The position numbers were made by a program, and so were the translations under genes. Below, in pieces: positions 7,660-18,490 of a stretch of DNA of 64,000 nucleotides. The stretch is from Rhizodiscina lignyota (Eukaryota). The stretch covers positions 1,116,001-1,180,000 of the forward strand of contig ML978130.1 of NCBI GenBank assembly GCA_010015805.1. Direction: 5' to 3'. The notes below the pieces were generated by a model. The model saw nothing but the letters and a program-made list of their open reading frames with translations. It ran no database searches and was not told the origin of the DNA. How positions within the stretch are numbered: position 1 is the first letter of the stretch; each line of letters opens with the position of its first letter.

Positions 7660-8240
7660 GACCGAGCTCGCACAGTGCGAAGAGGTTGGACCCTTCGCTC
7701 GGCCCTTCCGCTTCGAGCGTGCTTGCACTACCTATGTACAGAGATCATTACATCTACTGCGCTTACCTTCTCCCACGGGCCACGGAGCTCGCTGTATGCG
7801 TGAAGATTGGGCCTACGTACATACTTCACCCTCATCCACAGAGCTCGTACTATGTACGAAGCATTACTGAGTTGTCCGCCTCGCCTTCTTCTCGAAAGCT
7901 TACACCATGAGTGGAGAATTGTCTGTTTGCTTCGTAGGTATTCGACTTTAGCTTTCTCATGGACGTCGAAGTTCACTTCGATTATACGCAGGCGCTCAAC
8001 TTGCAACCTACTCAAGTCGATCTAGCTTTACTTTAGTCAAGTATATTTGCTCGGTGTCCGGCCTGCGTGTGAAGGTTGAGATTCAATTCGATTATAAGTG
8101 GGCGCTCAACTTACAATTTGTACACAGACACCAATTTTCACCTCAGATTAAGATCTCTTAACGCCTAGTGGCCGAATAGATGTCGAGCTTTAGTTTAATC
8201 ATCTGCAGGCGATCAACTTACAATTCGTCTACGTTTCCTT
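7660..8240 (-). repeat. Degenerate tandem repeat (about 110 bp period), probable pseudogene relic
   Basis: Three copies of a ggcgmtcaacttrcaa core near 7992, 8101 and 8208. Three copies of gagctcg...gaag near 7663, 7785 and 7841. Confidence 0.55.
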
Positions 8241-8503
8241 AGCTTCATCCGACGTGTACGCTCCGACCGAAAGAGCGGATAGCTTTGCAGTCACGCCCAC
8301 GTTCGAAGCCAAGATCCGATTTGAAAAGTTTCTCACAGACGGAGATATCGTCAAGGCAGTGTTCCTATTTAAAGAGATAAATAGGCCGGCTACTGATAGC
8401 AACGTAGCAGCGGGCGGTAGGATGGTATTTTGGGTTTGAAGCTGATGACGCGGTTGTAAGAAATCCTTTGTTAAAATTCACAAGACTATCAGTGAGTACG
8501 TTA

Positions 8504-10138
8504 TCAAGCAAACATCTCCTCTTCATGTATCTGACACATATCTTCCCAACCCAGCCAGGCTCCCATATCACTCCAGACGCCGCCCTTCTGCGTCCAAGGT
8601 TTCTGGACCTCGTCTTCGCCCTCTGCATTCCACCACACACGCCCATCAATCCGGCCTCTGGTAATGGGCTTCCTCTCTCTGTTCGTCTCTCGGACGGCGG
8701 CATATAGAAGCTCCATCCCATACGGAACGTACCACATTCGGCTCCACCACCAATCGATCATGTCTTTGCCACCGGTAACCGTGAAGTGGAATACGGCAAA
8801 GATTTGCTTCGTAGCCATGTTCGTGCCGAGCGGGAGCCCTGACCATGTTTGCAGCTCCTTACCGGAGGCCTGCTTGTCGCTCCTCGTGGCATCCTGCGGT
8901 CTGAAGCCGGCCGGGAAAGGAGCCGGCGAATTCCCAATGTCATCAGGCAGGTAGAATTTGCCAGCGGTGCTCTTTATCCTTCTTTTGTTGGAGCTCTTGC
9001 TCTTCTTCGACGACGATAATGTCTTCGTGATTGGGTTGTAATAATCATAATGTGTCCAACCCAGCCATGCTTCGTACCCGGCCGCTGTTTGGAACACTGC
9101 GCTCTCGTAATCCACACCAATATGGAACTCCGTCTTCTGTCCGTCCTCCCATTCCGGATACGTCGCGTCGCCGTTCGGCGGGGGTGGCTGTCTATTTTCA
9201 TTGAACAGCTCTCTGCGGCCCCAGATATCGGTCAAGTTCCGCCATATTTCCGTCCGTACCCATTCCTGGGTACCCCAGAGATCAGCCAAATACATCTGAT
9301 CCGACTGTCTCACCACATCTTCAGCCTCTTCATCGTACTCCCTGCTCATCATGACCATTGTGCCTTTGAACAGCTCCAGCAAATCCTTCACATTCCCCAT
9401 TATGGTCCCTGAATTGAGCCACCGCGCGCGATTCATCGAACCGCCCGAATCGGTATGCGGTCCCAATGCCCACTTGCCCACAGTGGACTGCGGAATCGCC
9501 CAGCACGCAGGACGGTTGTAATCCGCCGGCCAGCAGAATTTGTCCGGACCGAACAGGATCGTCTGCCTGATATTCTCGAGCTCCATCACGCCTTCTCCAA
9601 AGTCCTCCGCAAGCCTCTCCTCCGCCGCCGCGTTGACATCAAAATACCTTGAAATAAGCACATCAGGGCGAAGTTGGAGCCATACGTCGGATCCGTCAAC
9701 GATCAGCACCAAATCGTCGTTTCGTTCGGGAGGGAGAGACTCGAGATATCGGATTGTCCCAGTGATTTTGGCGATGGAGGATGTGCTGATATCGTACTCG
9801 CCTGTGGCGTTCCAGCCTACGAGTATGGGGGTCGGATAGTTTAGCACTGCGGCAGAGTAGAGGAGGCGGCAGAGGTTCAGATCGGCAGTCGTGGTTGGTA
9901 CTAGGAGGTGGAAGTAGGAGCGCGAGGAGCGATGGAAAAGGTTAAGCGATAGTGGTAGAAGATTGTATGACTGTTCAAGTACTGTATTAGCCGAGTTCGG
10001 AAGCCTATTACGCGGGGCACGTACAGAATCGCTGTTGGCGAGAAAGAAAAGGATAACGATTGTGCAGAGGAGTAGTATCAGGACGGTTCGTCTGGAGAAC
10101 GGTTTTCGTCTCGAGGACGGCGAGTAGCTTGCGCCCAT
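8504..10138 (-). CDS. Type II membrane putative glycosyltransferase, PLOD/LH3 GT-domain-like
   Basis: Intronless 544 aa ORF with an N-terminal TM anchor. Motifs LVLIVDGSDV, ILFGPDKFCWP, RWLNSGTIMG and SDQMYL parallel the LH3 GT motifs (VDSYDV, FSAESFCWP, FLNSGGFIG, DDQLFY). Confidence 0.75.
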   Translation of the reverse strand: MGASYSPSSRRKPFSRRTVLILLLCTIVILFFLANSDSVRAPRNRLPNSANTVLEQSYNLLPLSLNLFHRSSRSYFHLLVPTTTADLNLCRLLYSAAVLNYPTPILVGWNATGEYDISTSSIAKITGTIRYLESLPPERNDDLVLIVDGSDVWLQLRPDVLISRYFDVNAAAEERLAEDFGEGVMELENIRQTILFGPDKFCWPADYNRPACWAIPQSTVGKWALGPHTDSGGSMNRARWLNSGTIMGNVKDLLELFKGTMVMMSREYDEEAEDVVRQSDQMYLADLWGTQEWVRTEIWRNLTDIWGRRELFNENRQPPPPNGDATYPEWEDGQKTEFHIGVDYESAVFQTAAGYEAWLGWTHYDYYNPITKTLSSSKKSKSSNKRRIKSTAGKFYLPDDIGNSPAPFPAGFRPQDATRSDKQASGKELQTWSGLPLGTNMATKQIFAVFHFTVTGGKDMIDWWWSRMWYVPYGMELLYAAVRETNRERKPITRGRIDGRVWWNAEGEDEVQKPWTQKGGVWSDMGAWLGWEDMCQIHEEEMFA

Positions 10139-12100
10139 GGCACCGACATCTGGTTTCCTTCTTCAAATCTTCCTGATCTTCGAGTTCAACGATAGCTGTT
10201 TAACGGCGTAGCGCCGTATGAAATGGCCACGAGGGCAACTTGCGGAGCAAGTGAACGAACGGAGACAATAGAGACTAAATTAGGCGGAGTTGATGGAACA
10301 TGCAACTGCCATAGCATGTAGACACCTCATTGCTCCAGGTATCTCTTTGGGTGAAGCTGAAGCAACATCTCAAGTGTAGCAGATGCGTCAGCGTATCGCG
10401 AAATCAGGCTGTGCATTGGCAGCATTTAGGTCTCGCGACACGGGTGGTCCATACGAAGGACCGGGATGAGATGAGTTCAGGGATTGAGAGCAGGGGTAGC
10501 ATTGCGGCTCAATCTCTTCGAAGAGGACATAGAAGTTGTCTGGAGAACGAAACAGCAGTGATGTAGAGCCTCTACAATCAACAAGAAGCAAATGGTTGCA
10601 GATGGTATGTTACTATGGCAAGCACTCCGAAGAAGGTAGAGCTAGGCTTCCAGGACAATCTCGATTCTTGTGAAGTGCAAAAGCTTCGGCGTTACGGCTT
10701 GCTCCGGCAGCCAAATACATATTATTTCGACCCCCATAATCTCTTTTCTTCAATCGCACTATCTCCACCCTTCTCTGGCTCTCAGTATCAGAGAGACATC
10801 GCAATACCATGCTAAACGTTTTCGAGTACGCCTATACATTCCACGTCTTGATCGCGAGATCCGATTTAGACTCTTGCGGTTGGATTATCCTAGTTGATCA
10901 TTCTACTTCTTCTCAGCTACTCCAAATGGCAAGATATCATGAGAGCAATGGGAATTCACTAAATTTCCATTCTGTTATTCTTCAATCTTCAGTTATCTTT
11001 TCGTGAGTACTGAAGTGTAGAAGAACGAACAAAGGTCCGAGGATGCTTAATATTCATATCACTTTCAAGTTCGAGTAATGGAGAGTCATGCTTATATATA
11101 AGCAAAAGTCTTGCAAATGCGCCCTTCTTCTCCTCAGGGCAATGTAGAGCTTTACAAGCATCGCTCCTCTCTATTCCGTATTCTGCAGTCCTCCACAGTT
11201 TGCAGTTCAGGAGCATGCTTATCCAAATGAAACCTTTTTCCCAGCGCGGTAAGGCAACCGACCCGCTCGTATCCTCCTACTAAGAGCCGCAAATGCCCAA
11301 AAAATTAAGCATTTCTCAGGCAGGGGCACAGGCCTGTACCCGGCTCCGGGTTCCTGCATACATAAGGTACGCTTACAGGTTAGATTCTGGGTTCCTGAGG
11401 TTGTCGTAATGGAGACAGAGTTTCTGATGCCAAGGCCGCGCAATCAACTCCATATCAAAGGGTTTCGAACGCGTCGAGATACCAAGACAGCCGCGCGTTT
11501 GGCCAAGCTGTGAGCCCAAGAGATTGGCGGGAAACGGAATCTCAGCGGGAGAGGATCAATCCGTGCGCGGCGCCGAGTTGCCAATGACGCTGCGTGGCTC
11601 GTGAATGTTTGCGAGTGGACAAATCGACCTGAGACGTGAATTGTCGGAGAACGAGCAGGAGAGAGGACCAGCCGCAACTCAGCCACAGGTATCGTGGCAT
11701 TTGGTTCAAGCGATTCCAATTGACCATACAGGTTCTGGCGGGCTGCATGCAGAGCAGAGTGGACAGGTTCGAGAGCAGGTTTGGAAAACGTACAAAGTGA
11801 AGTATCACGAGTTTCCATTTTCCCAATTCCACTCCGTTGTTGAGGGGGCCTTAAAACTCGATATTTACAGCGCAATCGAGTCCTCAACCAGTCCAGTAAA
11901 ACCGTTCTTGCCGTGCAGAAGAAAAAAAGAAGCCATTTACAAAGGGTATGATGCCCCTCCCAATCCCGACCTGCGTAGGGTTCTATGTACAAGATAGTTT
12001 AATTATGTGCTGCTCTCGTCAAGAGTCCAGAACTCAAAATGCGGAGCCAGAGCGCTGAATGGGAATATCATCCCAAATCAAATTCAATGAAGAAATAAGT

Positions 12101-13487
12101 TTATGCATCAGTTCTCTTGCTCACTGCTTGATCCGTCTGTTGCTTCGCCACCTGCTGTACCGCCTGGGTCTTCTTCATCTTACTTGACAGCTCCACCTTG
12201 GAATACCACGCCGCGCCTGCCAACGCAACCACCATGCCTGCACCGTTCAGTGGGCCAACCTTCACGTTGAACAAAACAATGCCAAGCAGAATAGTCAGAC
12301 ACTGCTTGATATTGCCGCATACGCTGATCGTCAGCGCGCCGGCGAGTTTGTTCGTCTGGAAGGAGGTGATGTTGAGGAGGAAGGCGAGAACGCCATTGCC
12401 AGCTAAGGCAAGGATTTGGGGTCGGGTGAGGTTGCCGTCGGCGTAGTACTGGAGGAAGGAAGAGAGCTCGCCGGTCGCGCCGGAGAAGAGGATCGATTGG
12501 AGGGCTGCGAGGGGGGACATGCGGAGGAGGATTTCGAGAGCGGGGAGGGCGAGAGAGCCGGTCATCAGGCGGTTTGTTATGACAGTCTGTATGAATCCGC
12601 TGTTTTAGCACAGCTTCACTCTGAACACGACATAGGCGCTTCCGCCATTTGAATCGGAGGGAAATTGCAGTGTGTAATATGAGTATAACGAACCTTGATG
12701 GCTGCCAAGACAACTCCGGCAAGAGTGAGAACGAAGCCAACATTTGTGAAATAATAATCGCCGTAAGTAGCAAGTCCCACGCCGAGGACAAGCGGAATCA
12801 TGGAGAGGTATGTAGCGGTAGAGTATGAACGCGCATAGAAAACGCGGAAGATGACGATCGTGAACAGCGGAACGGTGGATCGCATAATTTGATGGAAAGG
12901 TACTGAAACCAAGGCGCTGGAGAACGACAGGTTAGCTTGAACAGGATAAACGGAGTGCTTGGTGAAGCTTACAGCGAAACGTTCGACATGGCAATGTTGA
13001 TGGTGAAGAGGAAGGAAAATGCAACGAGAACCATGTTCTCATATGTGGAGAGTTTCGTCAATCGGAAGTAACCTCTTAACAGGAGGCCGTAGCAGCCCAG
13101 AGCCGCGGAAGCGGAATGCAGCGCAGTCAATAGCCATGGAAACGCGAACTTTTTGGTTGTCAGCGCCTTTCGAACTCATCCTTCACAGAATTTGTGGCCA
13201 CTCACCTTCCCGAGAACCGCTTTGTTGTAAATCGTCAAGGCCAAGTTGAAAAAGAAGTAAATTCCCAAGTAGAACAGCTTCGTGTTCGTTGAAACGCCCT
13301 GTTCATATTGGACGTCCTCCTTTGGCGCGGCCTGTGGTATCTGTGACTCAACGTCCTTTGGTCTTAGGTCTCTCTTCTCAGCCTCCTCCATGTTCTCCTC
13401 CTCGTCGGAGCCGACCCCGCTATCGTGCCACTGCTCTTTTCCAGCGAAGCTCTCCCTTCTCTCTCCAGGATGTTGTAGTGACGCCAT
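12101..13487 (-). CDS. Nucleotide-sugar transporter, triose-phosphate translocator (TPT/DMT) family
   Basis: Four exons (introns 13149-13205, 12917-12972, 12587-12693). Motifs FNLALTIYNKAVL, VSVPFHQIMRSTVPLFT, LLRMSPLA, GALTISVCGNIKQ. Multiple TM helices. Confidence 0.9.
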
Positions 13488-15701
13488 TCGCAGTGCTGTA
13501 GCGTCGACGATGTCGAATTCGGCGAACGCGACTCAAAGTGGGCGCGGCGAGCGAGAATTAAGAGGGTGCGGAACGGTATTTAAGGAGGTCCCGAAAATTG
13601 AGGTATGCTTGGCTAATGAGACCATGTCGTCAGCACTGCTATTCGTATGTTTGTATTTGCTTGTCCATATGCGTCAAATGAAACGGGGGGTCGGCCACGC
13701 GCAAGCAGAGCCAGCGAGTATACGTAATCCCCTGAAAATTCCCACGCCGGCCCCAGGAATTTAGGCCAAGGAAGCGCCAAATGTCGCAAGTAGAAAACGT
13801 ACTTTGCAGAAACAAATTCGTCCACTGCCTCCCGGAACACGCTTATCCGAGATGGCGGTTATTTCAAGTCGAGCGGAAGCAAGAGAAACGAGTGTAAACG
13901 CCGAGCCTTGGTCGTTTTTCGTGCTGGATGCGGGAGTGGTACGCGTTTGCAGTGACGTTAACGTTGTCGACAGAGGGCGTCAGGACGGCGGGGAGAGAAA
14001 GATGTCTCCTACGGCAGCGAGGTGAGGTGGGAGGCGATAGGGCTAAATAGCGGTGCAGGAGCGCGCGATAGGGAGCGCGAAAGGAAATGGGGTGAGGATT
14101 ACTAGCAGGCGGGTGCAGTCGCGGCTGAGACGGGCATGGCGGCACATTGCAGGCAGCTGGGTGGAGGCATCAAGTCAAGAGTCGCGCGTGGGTAAGCAGT
14201 GCAGTGCATTTTCACCGACCGACAGACACAGTGCCACTGGCTTTCAAGGCCTTCGAGCTTGGCGCAGGAACGCCGGACCCAACGATATGCGAAATTGGAG
14301 CGGCTGGCCTGTTTTGGCCTCTTGGGACTTGCTCCTCTTGCAGCGCGTCTGCACGTCGGACGGCCATTCGCGCATGATTGGCGTTGATCACCCATCTTAT
14401 CCGATGACGGCATGGGCCTCCGAGCCACTTGAAAAGGCAGTCCTCTCACTGCCTTTGCAGGAGCTGTTGCATCGATACTTCTCGTGCGCCCATGCCACAA
14501 AGCCCATTGTCCGACGATGGAAGACGCGCCTCCATCATGGCAATTAGCAGCATCTCCTCATGACGCCCTTTCCGACCTAGTCCATCGTGCAAGTCCAGGC
14601 GAAATCCAGCTATCAGGACGTTATCACCGATAGAGCGTAGCGAGCCGCAAAGATGGGCCCAACTCAGGGGCTGCCGTCGCATTTTCGACGATCTGAAATG
14701 GATGGGATTGAGTTGGCTTATAGGGCGCGCCACCGCTATGCCAGTCTCAGCGCCGCGATTGTTCCAGAGTCCTTCCTTTTACGACAGCATATCAGACGAC
14801 TTCATTGGAGCACGTTTCTGTGGAGGATGCCCTTCTATCACGTCGCCTCCGGCTGCTGAGACGATGCTGGGGAACGCATTTCCATCGGAAAAGGCTCCGA
14901 CGATCGGTATTCGAAAGAGGCTCTCGACCGGAAATTGAATGTCGTGCAATGGAATGGACTATGTACCGGCTGCAAAATGGACGGCAAGTCTATGTATCCA
15001 ATCGAGAAATCACTATTTATTGGGAAGCGACAGTTGCGCAGCTAACCGCTTGCGGCACATCGTGATAGGAGGCAAAGGGGATCAATGCCCGTCGCTTCAC
15101 GCGCTGCCACGCTAAAATTAGGCTGACTGCTGAAGCTGCAGGGCAATGTGGTGTCCTGGAGCCCGGTCAAGCCACCACGCGCTCTAAATTGACCTCCGTG
15201 ATTGCAATCGTCTGCGTCTTGAACCTTCGTGGACGGCCGTAGTAAATAGGCCGGCGTGCCACAGTGGTGCGGCGCCTTCATATGTGGGCAGCGCTGCACG
15301 CTGCCAGGGGCACAGGCGCACTTAATTCCAGTTGTATTCCGTACCTGCACCAGCGTTAGCCCGAAGCTCCTGTCCAGCGTCAAGCCCGTCTTTTTGGCGG
15401 AGCCTCGAACCATCGCTAGCCTTTTCATCACCTCTTCCGTGCTGAGAAAAAATTGCAACTAACAAAGCTGCCGCAAGCGACCTTCACCTGGCCTTTCGTC
15501 TCGACGTCACACTGCTGCTGCCCTCGTGCGGTGACACGAAGCTGAGAGAGGCTCAGCCAGCTATAAATTTTTCTGCAGGGACCTGATTGCTGGGATTCTC
15601 GCTCAGGGACCGTTCACGGCCACCGATCACCAAATACAACTGCCCTCCGCGGAATCTCGTGAAGGCAGTGCCAGCCCTCAGTCGAGCCTTCTCGTGCCAC
15701 C

Positions 15702-17508
15702 ATGACGCTTCCAGTGCCCGCTGCGACAAACGGAACTTCTTCAGACCATAGCAGACCCGTCGCAACAAGGACAATCACCCCCGGCATCGAGCACGTCATG
15801 CGAACTTATGACCTCCTCAAGCTGCCTCACGGCAGAATCACCAAGATCTGCTGCATAGGCGCTGGCTATGTCGTGAGTACCCTCCTCTGCACGTCGCGAT
15901 AGAGTTTTGGGAGCCTTACTTGAGCAACCGCGTGATCAAACTTTATTTCCGCATCTCTTCGTCCCATCTCGAGAGCACCCCTGAAGCCTCACCGCATCCT
16001 CATACGCAACAGCGAAAAGGCCATATTTTCAGTGACTGACTGTAATATCTGTCTTCTAGGGTGGACCAACATGCGCCGTCACTGCCAACAAGAACCCTGA
16101 CGTTAGTGTAACCGTCGTCGACCTCAGCGAGTCCCGTATCGCAGCATGGAACTCCTCCACCCTCCCCATCTACGAGCCTGGCCTTTGGGAGCAGGTCCAA
16201 GGCGCACGCGACGGTGGTGCAGACCGCCCTCAGAACCTCTTCTTCTCTACAGATATTGATAAAGCGATCGACGAGGCCGAACTGATCTTCGTCTCCGTCA
16301 ACACCCCTACCAAGACCATGGGTGCTGGTGCAGGATTGGGGAGCGACACAAGTTACGTGGAAATGGCGATTCGAAAGATCGCTCAGGTCGCTACATCAGA
16401 CAAAATTGTTGTGGAGAAGAGCACGGTGCCAGTGCGCACGGCAGAGACGATGCGCGAGATTCTCAAGGCGATCGGAAAGCCAGGTGTCCATTTCGAGGTG
16501 CTGTCGAACCCCGAGTTCCTGGCTGAGGGCACCGCTATCCGCGATCTTCTCGCTCCCGACCGAATCCTCATTGGTTCTCTCCTGAATGACCACGGTCTCC
16601 AAGCCGCAGCCGCTCTCGCAGAAGTATACGCGCGCTGGGTGCCAAGAGAACGCATCATCACCATGAACCTATGGAGCTCCGAACTTGCCAAACTCGCCGC
16701 AAACGCCCTCCTAGCACAACGTATTTCCAGCATCAACGCTCTCAGCGCCGTATGCGAAGCAACAGGCGCCGACATTGACGAGATTGCCTTCGCCGTCGGC
16801 ACAGACAGCCGTATCGGCCCCAAGATGCTGAAAGCATCCGTCGGCTTCGGCGGCTCCTGCTTCAAGAAGGACGTCCTCTCCCTTGCCTACATCTCCGAGT
16901 GCCTGCACTTGCCCGAGGTCGCGGCCTACTGGCAGAGCGTCGTCGACATCAACGAGTACCAGAAGGACCGCTTCACCAAGCGCATCATCCGCTGCCTGTA
17001 CAACACCCTGAACAACAAGAAGGTCGCGGTGCTGGGCTTCTCTTACAAGAAGGATACGGGTGATACTCGTGAGTCGGCGGCTATCTCTATCATCGATGCC
17101 CTGGTTGCCGAGGGCGCGAAGATCAGCATCTACGACCCGCAGGTGCTGGAGAGCCAGATCTGGAGCGACATTGAGAAGTTCAAGGGCGCGAGGGGCGACG
17201 TGAAGCAGTACGTGACGGTGTGCAAGGATGTGTACAAGGCGTGTGAGGGCGCTCATGCCATCATCGTCCTGACTGAGTGGGACGAGTTCAGCAACAAGCA
17301 GATCGTGCCTGCAAAGGGAGGCGCAAATGGCGTTGCAAATGGCGAGAAGGAGAGGAAAAGGATGGACTGGCAAAGGGTCGCTGAGTCGATGGACCGCCCT
17401 TCGTTCGTCTTTGACGGCAGGAATATCGTGGATGCGGGCAAGTTAGAGGAGATGGGCTTCCGGGTCGAGTGCATCGGCAAGCCGGGCTCGGGTTGGTTCA
17501 AGGGCTGA
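15702..17508 (+). CDS. ugd1: UDP-glucose 6-dehydrogenase
   Basis: Intron 15873-16059 joins ICCIGAGYV|GGPT. Motifs VVEKSTVPV, SNPEFLAEG, catalytic GFGGSCFKKD, FSYKKDTGDTRES. Confidence 0.96.
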
Positions 17509-18490
17509 ATATGAGTTATGGAGATGATGAACGGACAGGAGATGAAGTATAATATATTTCGCTTTGGCTGGAGCCTCCCGCTCCTGTACAATTTTTCTTC
17601 AGTCTCTTGTATATCACATGGTTAGGGCTTCTTTTTGGGATCAAAGTATCTTTCTAGACGGGGTTTGCTTGTTAAAGCTCCGGCAGCGTCGGGATCTGGA
17701 TGGAGTGCACGTATATAGATTGTAGTGTCTCGCATTTGATTCATTGTTGGTTTGGATTTCCCTTTCCATTTCCTCGGCGGTTCTGTCTCGCTTGATGCCT
17801 CATGTCTCTCGTAAGATAGATTTCTGTTCATCGCAACCACCTCTCTCAGATGCGCGTCAGAAAAAAAAGAACCGCCTGTAAGTTCGTCGATAGTTCGTTC
17901 AGTGCATGTCAGAAAAAGAAAACCCTGTCCGCCCGCCCTCCAACGCCCATCCAATACGTGCCACAGGATAACATAGGCAAGTCCGTCCTCCCAAGTGTAC
18001 ACCAAACCACTGACGTCTCGACCTCCAAAGCTAGTTGTGGGTGTTGTGAAGGATGGAGTCCAGACCAAGATCGCGGATAGGGGCATTCGACAGGAACAAT
18101 AAATCAAGATGGTTTGATCACCCACGGAATACTTGCATTTCAATAACTTTTTGTAGCTGCAGTACAGTAGTCCCGAAGATGGATGCAACTTCGACGGGCT
18201 TGAAGCAATTATCGTGAGATATGGTTTCTCAACCTATCGCAAGACGAAATAGGCTTAGTCTAAATTTCCCTCGTGACATCGCCAGTCATCTAAGGTTTGC
18301 ATACATATCTCACTCACATCTTACTGACAAGATGCTGAATCTCGCAAATGCCATCCCTTTTCCATAATCTTAGCTGCTGTTGCAAATGCCATACCCAAAA
18401 AGACAATCCCCAACCTCATGACCTACCGAGCCATTCATCCGGCGGCCATGTCCTGGGCGACGTGAGCTGTGTTACAACATCGAATTCATC

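Follow-up and report, generated by a model that had tools for sequence, protein, structure and literature searches.

What might a nucleotide-sugar dehydrogenase, a nucleotide-sugar transporter, and a membrane-anchored glycosyltransferase be doing side by side in a filamentous ascomycete? These three genes, here Ugd, NST, and GT, respectively, lie within what I call the window, i.e., the 64,000-nucleotide stretch of Rhizodiscina lignyota DNA that was analysed. An initial annotation described them as a three-gene unit for synthesis, import, and transfer, with an orphan GT as the putative glucuronosyltransferase. The answer argued for here, held at a probability of roughly 0.6, is that they belong to a conserved Pezizomycotina cluster which would add glucuronic acid (GlcA) to secretory-pathway glycans, with the activities predicted from sequence.

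The genes themselves are real and intact (Table 1). Their arrangement is as annotated, that is, three neighbours, with transporter and dehydrogenase divergent across about 2.2 kb (2214 nt between start codons) and the GT downstream on the transporter's strand (1962 nt from NST stop to GT start, both on the minus strand). In the public annotation of a near-identical genome they are consecutive accessions, KAF2096221-223, with no gene between. The public models splice an in-frame 54-nt intron out of the GT stem, giving 526 aa, and start Ugd at a later ATG. Run X1, whose reads are probably those behind the assembly, has one contig that covers positions 8000-17900 with zero letter differences. A 184-aa frame at 11444-11998, along with other intergenic frames, was rejected as spurious, having no Pfam match and no credible tblastx match (80 loci).

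Table 1. Features of the GT, NST, and Ugd genes and of the spacer between the latter two (positions within the window).
Feature	Position	Strand	Remarks
LH3/PLOD-type GT-A glycosyltransferase (GT; predicted)	8504..10138	-	single open frame, 544 aa, type II membrane protein
N-terminal transmembrane anchor of GT, single (predicted)	10037..10093	-	residues about 16-34; model helix 16-34
Metal-binding DxxD motif of GT (D148, D151)	9686..9697	-	Ser150 inside motif
His451 of GT, putative third metal ligand (LH3 His253 equivalent)	8786..8788	-	
TPT-family nucleotide-sugar transporter (NST)	12101..13487	-	4 exons, 388 aa, ten hydrophobic segments
NST exons	13487-13206, 13148-12973, 12916-12694, 12586-12101	-	GT-AG introns of 57, 56, 107 nt
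UDP-glucose 6-dehydrogenase (Ugd; predicted)	15702..17508	+	2 exons, 539 aa
Ugd exons	15702-15872, 16060-17508	+	one intron, 187 nt
Divergent intergenic region common to NST and Ugd	13488..15701	.	
GCCAAG sites in NST-Ugd spacer	13608-13613, 13765-13770, 14258-14263	-, +, -	

By homology, Ugd is a eukaryotic UDP-glucose 6-dehydrogenase, predicted to convert UDP-Glc to UDP-GlcA. All three of its UDPG_MGDP_dh domains (PF03721, PF00984, PF03720) score above the Pfam cut-off, and human UGDH is matched at E 3.7e-164. Its catalytic Cys, Lys, Glu, and Thr motifs are identical to those of human UGDH in alignment and are present in the public model too. Ugd is single copy, the sole UDP-glucose dehydrogenase of the genome, and the protein is without a membrane segment. 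NST matches TPT (PF03151) at 130 bits, with a cut-off of 30, and is a TPT-type family member with a predicted ten helices. Its lasting linkage to Ugd points to UDP-GlcA as the probable cargo; sequence is, in the excerpted text of PMC5790919, a poor predictor of NST substrate.

A single-sequence search of the PDB with the GT returned chance matches only, and fold assignment by search needed a profile. The Pfam GT_PLOD match is weak, at 20.2 bits (cut-off 27), with two paralogues from the same genome and two orthologues scoring 28-38 bits. Foldseek nevertheless matches the GT to LH3 at E 2.8e-11, and the GT model aligns to the LH3 GT domain with Z 23.7 (rmsd 2.5, 236 aligned; next fold Z 12.7), Z values to LH3 and mimivirus R699 being 21.8-23.7. 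Profile and structure searches thus agree on a predicted LH3/PLOD fold, which sustains the annotated assignment. Pfam finds no lysyl-hydroxylase domain in the GT. Its anchor is the sole hydrophobic window above 1.6, an anchor being found also in 58 of 72 full-length homologues, and the catalytic domain is by predicted topology luminal. As Ugd is single copy and lacks a membrane segment, a transporter would therefore be needed. Residues D148, D151, K124, N242-S243-G244, D280-Q281, and H451 are invariant in 118 of 118 fungal sequences, and these motifs align to LH3 except for His451, whose equivalence to LH3 His253 is taken from position in the fold rather than residue by residue.

The cluster persists in distant genomes while its surroundings vary, so that the linkage anticipated for Pezizomycotina is indeed found. 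In Saccharata, Acrodontium, Lecanora helva, and Dothideomycetes NU459 the accessions or locus tags of GT, NST, and Ugd follow one another directly or nearly so, while Polyplosphaeria, Decorospora, and Periconia have GT and Ugd at a distance of two accessions. NST and Ugd were matched to contigs of the same length in 14 of the 19 named genomes with matches to both. GT is linked to Ugd in 9 of 15 informative named genomes and on a different contig in the other 6. Aulographum, one of these 6, is the closest relative, yet its GT and Ugd are on separate contigs. Among metagenome GT loci, 24 of 78 have Ugd or NST and 13 have both; by locus group the former count is 17 of 51, or 6 of 10 where each flank is 6 kb or longer, the remaining 4 of those 10 having neither gene. 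Six different complete gene orders occur, with one to three GT paralogues per cluster, and the linkage extends over at least three fungal classes. Flanking genes are unrelated, no group sharing any with the window, nor distant groups with each other, and no fourth gene recurs besides Ugd, NST, and GT in the 26 loci examined. Six orders along with no fourth gene are more easily squared with selection for clustering than with inherited synteny. Within the data searched, Sordariomycetes did not display the linkage, NST homologues alone being found there.

The process proposed begins with cytosolic Ugd, which, its enzyme identity resting on homology, would oxidise UDP-glucose to UDP-GlcA. NST, as a TPT-type antiporter, a family it clearly belongs to, would then carry this putative substrate into the ER/Golgi lumen. 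There, at least one LH3-type GT-A enzyme, membrane-anchored and Mn-dependent, would transfer GlcA, probably with retention and so giving alpha-linked GlcA. The acceptor, on mannan or galactofuranan chains, may be mannose or galactofuranose (Galf), whether of glycoprotein chains or of wall or matrix heteromannans. For this last step it is fold and metal site that were found, from which donor, acceptor, and linkage are conjectured.

What is known of related enzymes bears on that donor from both sides. UDP-GlcA binds LH3 beside Lys89/Asp190/Asp191, and changing Asp190 to Ser in LH3 abolishes glucosyl transfer (PMC10342707); Ser occupies the Asp190 position in 118 of 118 fungal GTs. LH1 too carries Ser there, however, so this residue is not diagnostic. 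Counting against GlcA as donor, LH3 is weakly inhibited by UDP-GlcA, and trypanosome ESAG3 employs UDP-glucose only, rejecting UDP-GlcA. As for the product, the excerpted literature reports GlcA in Sporothrix O-glycans, lichen alpha-mannans, and Trichoderma and Fusarium walls, with no enzyme named in those excerpts. Walls of Zymoseptoria tritici, which has Ugd and NST homologues, are in a similarly excerpted source without detected GlcA. Wall GlcA is best documented in Sordariomycetes.

It is also conceivable, though rather unlikely, that a single side chain is built by mixed activities: some GT paralogues would be alpha-1,2-glucosyltransferases like LH3, e.g., placing Glc onto Galf, with GlcA coming from a single clade or from some enzyme encoded at an unlinked site, and with NST carrying perhaps both UDP-Glc and UDP-GlcA. 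The characterised relatives LH3 and ESAG3 do transfer glucose, from UDP-glucose, and Glc(alpha1-2)Galf is found in Neotestudina and Fonsecaea glycans (PMC5583699), the same chemistry as the Glc(alpha1-2)Gal of LH3. Clusters, too, hold GTs from distinct clades with differing pocket motifs. Nothing, however, would keep a glucosyltransferase alone beside Ugd while the genes were repeatedly rearranged, and Ser in place of Asp190, the change by which LH3 loses glucosyl transfer, is the norm in the family. On Galf itself the genome search is uninformative: PF03275 (bacterial UDP-galactopyranose mutase) has no match in the genome, and that model misses fungal enzymes.

The GT of the window is itself somewhat unusual. 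Its residue 121 is Ser where 115 of 117 homologues have His, and its residue 150 is Ser where 116 of 117, and both paralogues in the genome, have an aromatic. The equivalent LH3 residue, Tyr114, stacks on uracil and is required for activity. Since His121 and Tyr/Phe150 are lost here, and are both kept by the two unlinked paralogues, this GT may be impaired or altered, in which case transfer may fall partly or wholly to those paralogues. The annotated unit stands as regards linkage, but its version with just one orphan GT is weakened. From this it might be supposed that the functional pair is Ugd and NST only, the GT of this genome being a decaying or non-catalytic passenger while other enzymes use the UDP-GlcA. 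Further departures (Thr82, a short insertion after His451), the loss of DxxD and His from several clustered GTs elsewhere, and the tighter linkage of NST than of GT to Ugd all lean that way. The supposition is nonetheless improbable: the frame is intact, every metal ligand is kept, departures from consensus number 9 of 106 conserved columns against a median of 7, and most linked groups have at least one fully canonical GT. A common origin of the degenerate copies is not claimed, as the tree is from FastTree only and long branches meet among them. Double-GT proteins of 940-990 aa (P0002, P0361, P0362) were rejected as true fusions, most simply being merged annotations of tandem genes; the halves of P0002 match two separate frames of L011 at 96-97%.

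Could the sugar instead be xylose? Ugd would then feed an unlinked UDP-xylose synthase, NST would import UDP-xylose, and the GTs would be xylosyltransferases. The window contains no such synthase, as annotated: none of 29 PF16363 matches genome-wide falls there. The window's contig does, however, carry a homologue at a distance of 1.08 Mb (E 2.6e-72 to human UXS1), so absence from the window is no argument against xylose. UDP-Xyl also binds the LH3 pocket, and known UDP-xylose transporters are TPT-type. Such a route is very improbable even so, with the synthase sitting in a trio of its own beside a GT2 and an acyltransferase, and with no gene beyond Ugd, NST, and GT recurring in the 26 loci examined. 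Bacterial contamination was considered for contig C6 and then discounted, since fungal genes surround its bacterial-type epimerase and GC there is normal. Neutral, inherited synteny of three unrelated housekeeping genes, for which it can be said that the genes are apart in some genomes, is largely refuted, and extremely improbable, given the varied orders and orientations, the unshared flanks, and the span of fungal classes.

Returning to a GlcA-adding cluster, its divergent spacer carries GCCAAG, a putative PacC motif. Six such spacers have 19 copies versus 5.6 in shuffles and 6.7 in real DNA, an approximately threefold excess for a motif picked after the fact; held-out spacers have 12, versus 5.4 in shuffles and about 8 in bulk DNA. 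A broader and quite tentative proposal, one that I lean against, is that the fungal PLOD-type family represents the missing alpha-glucuronosyltransferases of filamentous ascomycetes, its collagen-glucosyltransferase fold retuned for UDP-GlcA (Asp190 to Ser, glycoloop His) and multiplied into paralogues of which some are active and others catalytically dead, with a pH-regulated cluster yielding the acidic glycans of lichen matrix, black-fungus slime, and Sporothrix and Fusarium surfaces. The glycan cluster is genuine, its product putative, and it is apparently undescribed, literature searches having found no description of Ugd, NST, and PLOD-type GT together. It supplies three testable gene families for acidic, GlcA-bearing glycans of ascomycetes, with a so far unstudied GT family as their likely maker at fungal surfaces. 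If the GlcA reading is true, then there would be as well a candidate UDP-GlcA transporter for filamentous ascomycetes and a new donor for the LH3/PLOD fold. Presence of the cluster in lichen-forming fungi bears, in addition, on whether the acidic matrix of lichens is a product of the fungus itself.

How, then, does this compare with known systems? With the GT domain of LH3/PLOD3 (GT_PLOD, PF25342), R699, a glucosyltransferase, and ESAG3, the fungal GTs share a GT-A fold, the DxxD, Lys, NSG, and DQ motifs, and a C-terminal His; unlike those three, they cluster with Ugd and NST. The window GT differs from LH3, a collagen glucosyltransferase, in being a stand-alone type II protein of ~500 aa with large insertions, about 20% identity, no Asp190, and no lysyl-hydroxylase domain, the Ser at the Asp190 position and a His at the glycoloop end being family-wide. 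Fungal Ugd beside a glycosyltransferase is otherwise seen in many genomes, per the excerpted PMC4059230, as with the UGD-GT1 pair of Wangiella dermatitidis and UGD1 of Aspergillus fumigatus (acidic glycolipid). In those excerpts the UGD-GT1 partner is a group 1 glycosyltransferase, a transporter goes unreported, and just one Dothideomycete has the pair, whereas here the partners are NST and a PLOD-type GT-A enzyme and are common in Dothideomycetes. Ugd has NST on one side and an unrelated gene on the other, and none of the five PF13692 (group 1) matches in the genome is on the window's contig. The UNGD and chitin-synthase-like pair of fungi and algal viruses likewise joins a nucleotide-sugar dehydrogenase to a presumed transferase, though with, as excerpted, another dehydrogenase class, a GT2 synthase, and no transporter. 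In Cryptococcus neoformans, capsule GlcA is beta-linked (excerpted PMC6912366), alpha linkage being what is expected of an LH3-type enzyme, and no capsule-type gene recurs in the 26 cluster loci. What survives of the annotated capsule comparison is its logic, i.e., the making of UDP-GlcA in the cytosol and its subsequent import into the secretory pathway, steps which Ugd1 and Uut1 of that yeast provide (excerpted PMC5790919, PMC6912366) and which Ugd and NST would provide here.

A UDP-glucose dehydrogenase (Ugd), a TPT-type nucleotide-sugar transporter (NST), and a membrane-anchored, LH3/PLOD-type glycosyltransferase (GT) had been proposed in the initial annotation to be neighbors, and so they are. 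That is, coordinates and strands are as described there, all three genes are intact, NST and Ugd diverge across 2214 nt, and in public annotation GT, NST, and Ugd have consecutive accessions. A contig of run X1, which perhaps is source data of the assembly, displays zero differences from this stretch. Further along, at 42035-64000 of the window, a nitrilase, an FAD monooxygenase, a Zn2Cys6 regulator, a HET-like protein, a multicopper oxidase, and an ABC transporter can be recognized by eye.

Gene trio (positions within the window) and sugar-related genes elsewhere (contigs C10 and C6 of the source genome)
Feature	Position	Strand	Remarks
GT	8504-10138	-	intact gene
NST	13487-12101	-	four exons, intact
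Ugd	15702-17508	+	two exons, intact
GT2 glycosyltransferase, UDP-xylose synthase homologue, Acyl_transf_3 acyltransferase	G000:C10:40200-45900		trio (locus L102)
Bacterial-type epimerase	G000:C6:805500-806700		intron-free, fungal genes around (loci L089, L108)

Synteny across Pezizomycotina, which had been suggested as a check, is indeed seen. GT, NST, and Ugd are consecutive in four named genomes, i.e., Saccharata proteae (with the gene order of the window), Acrodontium crateriforme, Lecanora helva, and Dothideomycetes NU459. Among pairs preselected as apparently sharing a contig, GT and Ugd are one or two accessions apart in five of five. NST and Ugd apparently share a contig in 14 of the 19 species found in both hit lists; as to the other five, Lecanosticta has the two apart, and four multi-member or multi-contig entries may mix assemblies. 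Once Aureobasidium, Zasmidium, and a Quercus-labelled record are set aside as uninformative, 15 species remain, and 9 of these have GT on the contig that carries Ugd. The six with GT elsewhere are Aulographum, Xylogone, Polychaeton, Neophaeotheca, Fulvia, and one Teratosphaeriaceae strain; a different GT paralogue may still adjoin Ugd in these genomes.

With metagenomes, the best 80 of 130 GT matches represent 78 loci, 24 of which carry Ugd or NST and 13 both, the majority of unlinked loci being too short for linkage to be judged. Grouped by DNA likeness, these same best 80 of 130 matches have Ugd or NST in 17 of 51 groups, and in 6 of the 10 whose flanks reach 6 kb or more on each side. The 12 complete groups display six gene orders, and the number of GTs ranges from one to three if the split GT in locus L059 is taken as one. 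One complete locus is Penicillium-like, as its GT shares 79% identity with a protein from P. argentinense. Because linked loci include this locus along with the named genomes, the linkage spans Dothideomycetes, Lecanoromycetes, and Eurotiomycetes; no Sordariomycete cluster locus was seen among the named genomes and metagenome loci compared. Among 26 loci examined, no gene beyond these three turns up repeatedly in distant groups, nor are the window's flanking genes shared by the cluster loci compared.

The route that we favor, at a probability of roughly 60%, is one in which Ugd would make UDP-glucuronic acid (UDP-GlcA) in the cytosol, NST would import it, and GT would then attach GlcA in alpha linkage to mannose or galactofuranose residues of glycans that are secreted or belong to the wall. 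What the analysis establishes is which genes these are, how their proteins fold and are oriented in the membrane, and that the genes are linked; what NST carries, and what GT takes as donor and acceptor and makes as product, are inferred. Ugd has three of three Pfam domains above cut-off, matches human UDP-glucose dehydrogenase (E 3.7e-164) with catalytic motifs intact, is without a second family member according to two genome searches, and yielded no membrane segment when scanned for one. P0123, a dehydrogenase attributed to a MAG of Terriglobus roseus, is 84% identical to this Ugd; it probably comes from a fungal contig that was wrongly assigned to a bacterial genome.

NST is a TPT-family protein (130 bits) with ten hydrophobic segments. 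It is only 26-28% identical to its two nearest paralogues in the genome and 56-74% identical (last exon compared) to homologues from Dothideomycetes, lichen-forming fungi, Leotiomycetes, and Sordariomycetes. UDP-GlcA is its predicted substrate, one which is not deducible from sequence given the explicit statement, in the Uut1 paper, that NST substrates are unreadable in that way (PMC5790919).

GT possesses a single N-terminal anchor. Its claimed PLOD/LH3 type agrees with an AlphaFold model (pLDDT 84.7; 118 sequences), which is closest to LH3, i.e., human PLOD3, and to the mimivirus relative R699 (Foldseek E 2.8e-11; Z 21.8-23.7, far above the 12.7 of the next fold). A profile search gave 585 clusters with E < 1e-30, the closest Atlas clusters being unnamed ascomycete proteins. 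All 118 aligned homologues, without exception, have K124, D148, D151, N242-S243-G244, S279-D280-Q281, R295, H451, and K458. The fungal family as a whole departs from LH3 twice at the donor site: Ser stands in place of Asp190, and the glycoloop ends in His. With LH3 itself, Asp190Ser abolishes glucosyl transfer, and UDP-GlcA is a weak inhibitor, bound beside Lys89, Asp190, and Asp191 (PMC10342707). An acid lost and a His gained would suit a carboxylated donor; LH1, however, likewise has Ser there, which makes Ser undiagnostic of UDP-GlcA use. The main rival reading is that some GT paralogues instead are glucosyltransferases, and Glc(alpha1-2)Galf in fact occurs in Neotestudina and Fonsecaea (PMC5583699). 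ESAG3, a trypanosome protein and, like the fungal GTs, a stand-alone LH3 relative, has UDP-glucose as sole donor; fungi are not mentioned in the portion consulted of that preprint (bioRxiv 10.64898/2026.01.27.701950).

For GlcA transfer, the reading preferred here, candidate products include Sporothrix O-glycans, with one GlcA on a mannobiose core (PMC12112902, PMC8541085), lichen alpha-mannans, on which GlcA, a sugar that routine hydrolysis can easily overlook, has been reported (PMC7164778), and the GlcA of Trichoderma and Fusarium walls (PMC11170279). GlcA was not detected in Zymoseptoria tritici walls (PMC11170279), and this speaks against the product being a bulk wall component among Dothideomycetes.

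The window's GT copy has Ser121 versus His in 115 of 117 homologues, Ser150 versus an aromatic residue in 116, Thr82 versus Ala in 113, and a short insertion following His451. Position 150 equates with LH3 Tyr114, which stacks on uracil and whose loss leaves LH3 nearly inactive (PMC6082870). Constraint on this copy, judging from nine departures at 106 conserved columns (homologue median 7), is normal overall. Two more GT paralogues, on other contigs, have canonical motifs, with no sugar genes among the neighboring frames listed; one groups (support 100) with Ugd-flanking GTs of three metagenome loci. Because the window copy is altered, while these unlinked paralogues are canonical, GT activity in R. 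lignyota may be found partly outside of the cluster. Two or more motif types exist within the family, and several clustered copies, whose position in the tree is unsure, have lost the DxxD and His. At eight of the DNA loci compared (L010, L013, L018, L029, L034, L036, L053, and L059), paralogues without these ligands adjoin a canonical copy, possibly as its non-catalytic partners. Three public proteins of 940-990 aa (P0002, P0361, and P0362, from Alternaria, Elsinoe, and Teratosphaeria) contain two GT_PLOD units each, that of Alternaria, at least, matching two separate tandem frames.

The genome also has a UDP-xylose synthase homologue, 1.08 Mb off on the window's own contig and beside a GT2 and an acyltransferase, as well as the C6 epimerase, which we take to be of the UDP-glucuronate 4-epimerase kind; UDP-GlcA thus has other possible uses. 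The C10 trio has the look of a unit making a polymer that contains xylose and is acylated. Neither synthase nor epimerase was seen in the 26 cluster loci examined. A second bacterial-looking sugar epimerase is present at C6:1983270.

GCCAAG, which matches the PacC site and which was chosen post hoc after an 8-mer screen, is enriched roughly threefold in six independent NST-Ugd spacers (window 13488-15701 plus L008, L010, L022, L059, and L075), having 19 copies there versus 5.6 in shuffles (maximum 10 in 200) and 6.7 in sets of real DNA, none of 300 such sets reaching 19. The top 8-mer is only borderline on the independent set, as 7 of the 200 shuffles and 21 of the 300 sets of real DNA did equally well, and ten held-out upstream regions contain 12 GCCAAG, where shuffles have 5.4 and bulk DNA would lead one to expect about 8. 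PacC control of the cluster would be a lead only, as read from these motif counts.

No description of the cluster or of a fungal PLOD-type family was found in full-text literature, a scope outside of which most subscription journals lie. Fungal Ugds have been surveyed in a preprint devoted to hyaluronan synthases of fungi, the word transporter being absent from the portion consulted, and the portion of PMC6994554 consulted holds nothing specific to the cluster. The cluster is of a precursor-transporter-transferase type, built on an uncharacterised enzyme family. The Cryptococcus route shares only its logic, and the closest described fungal arrangement, the UGD-GT1 pair, differs in employing another transferase class and in having no transporter (PMC4059230).
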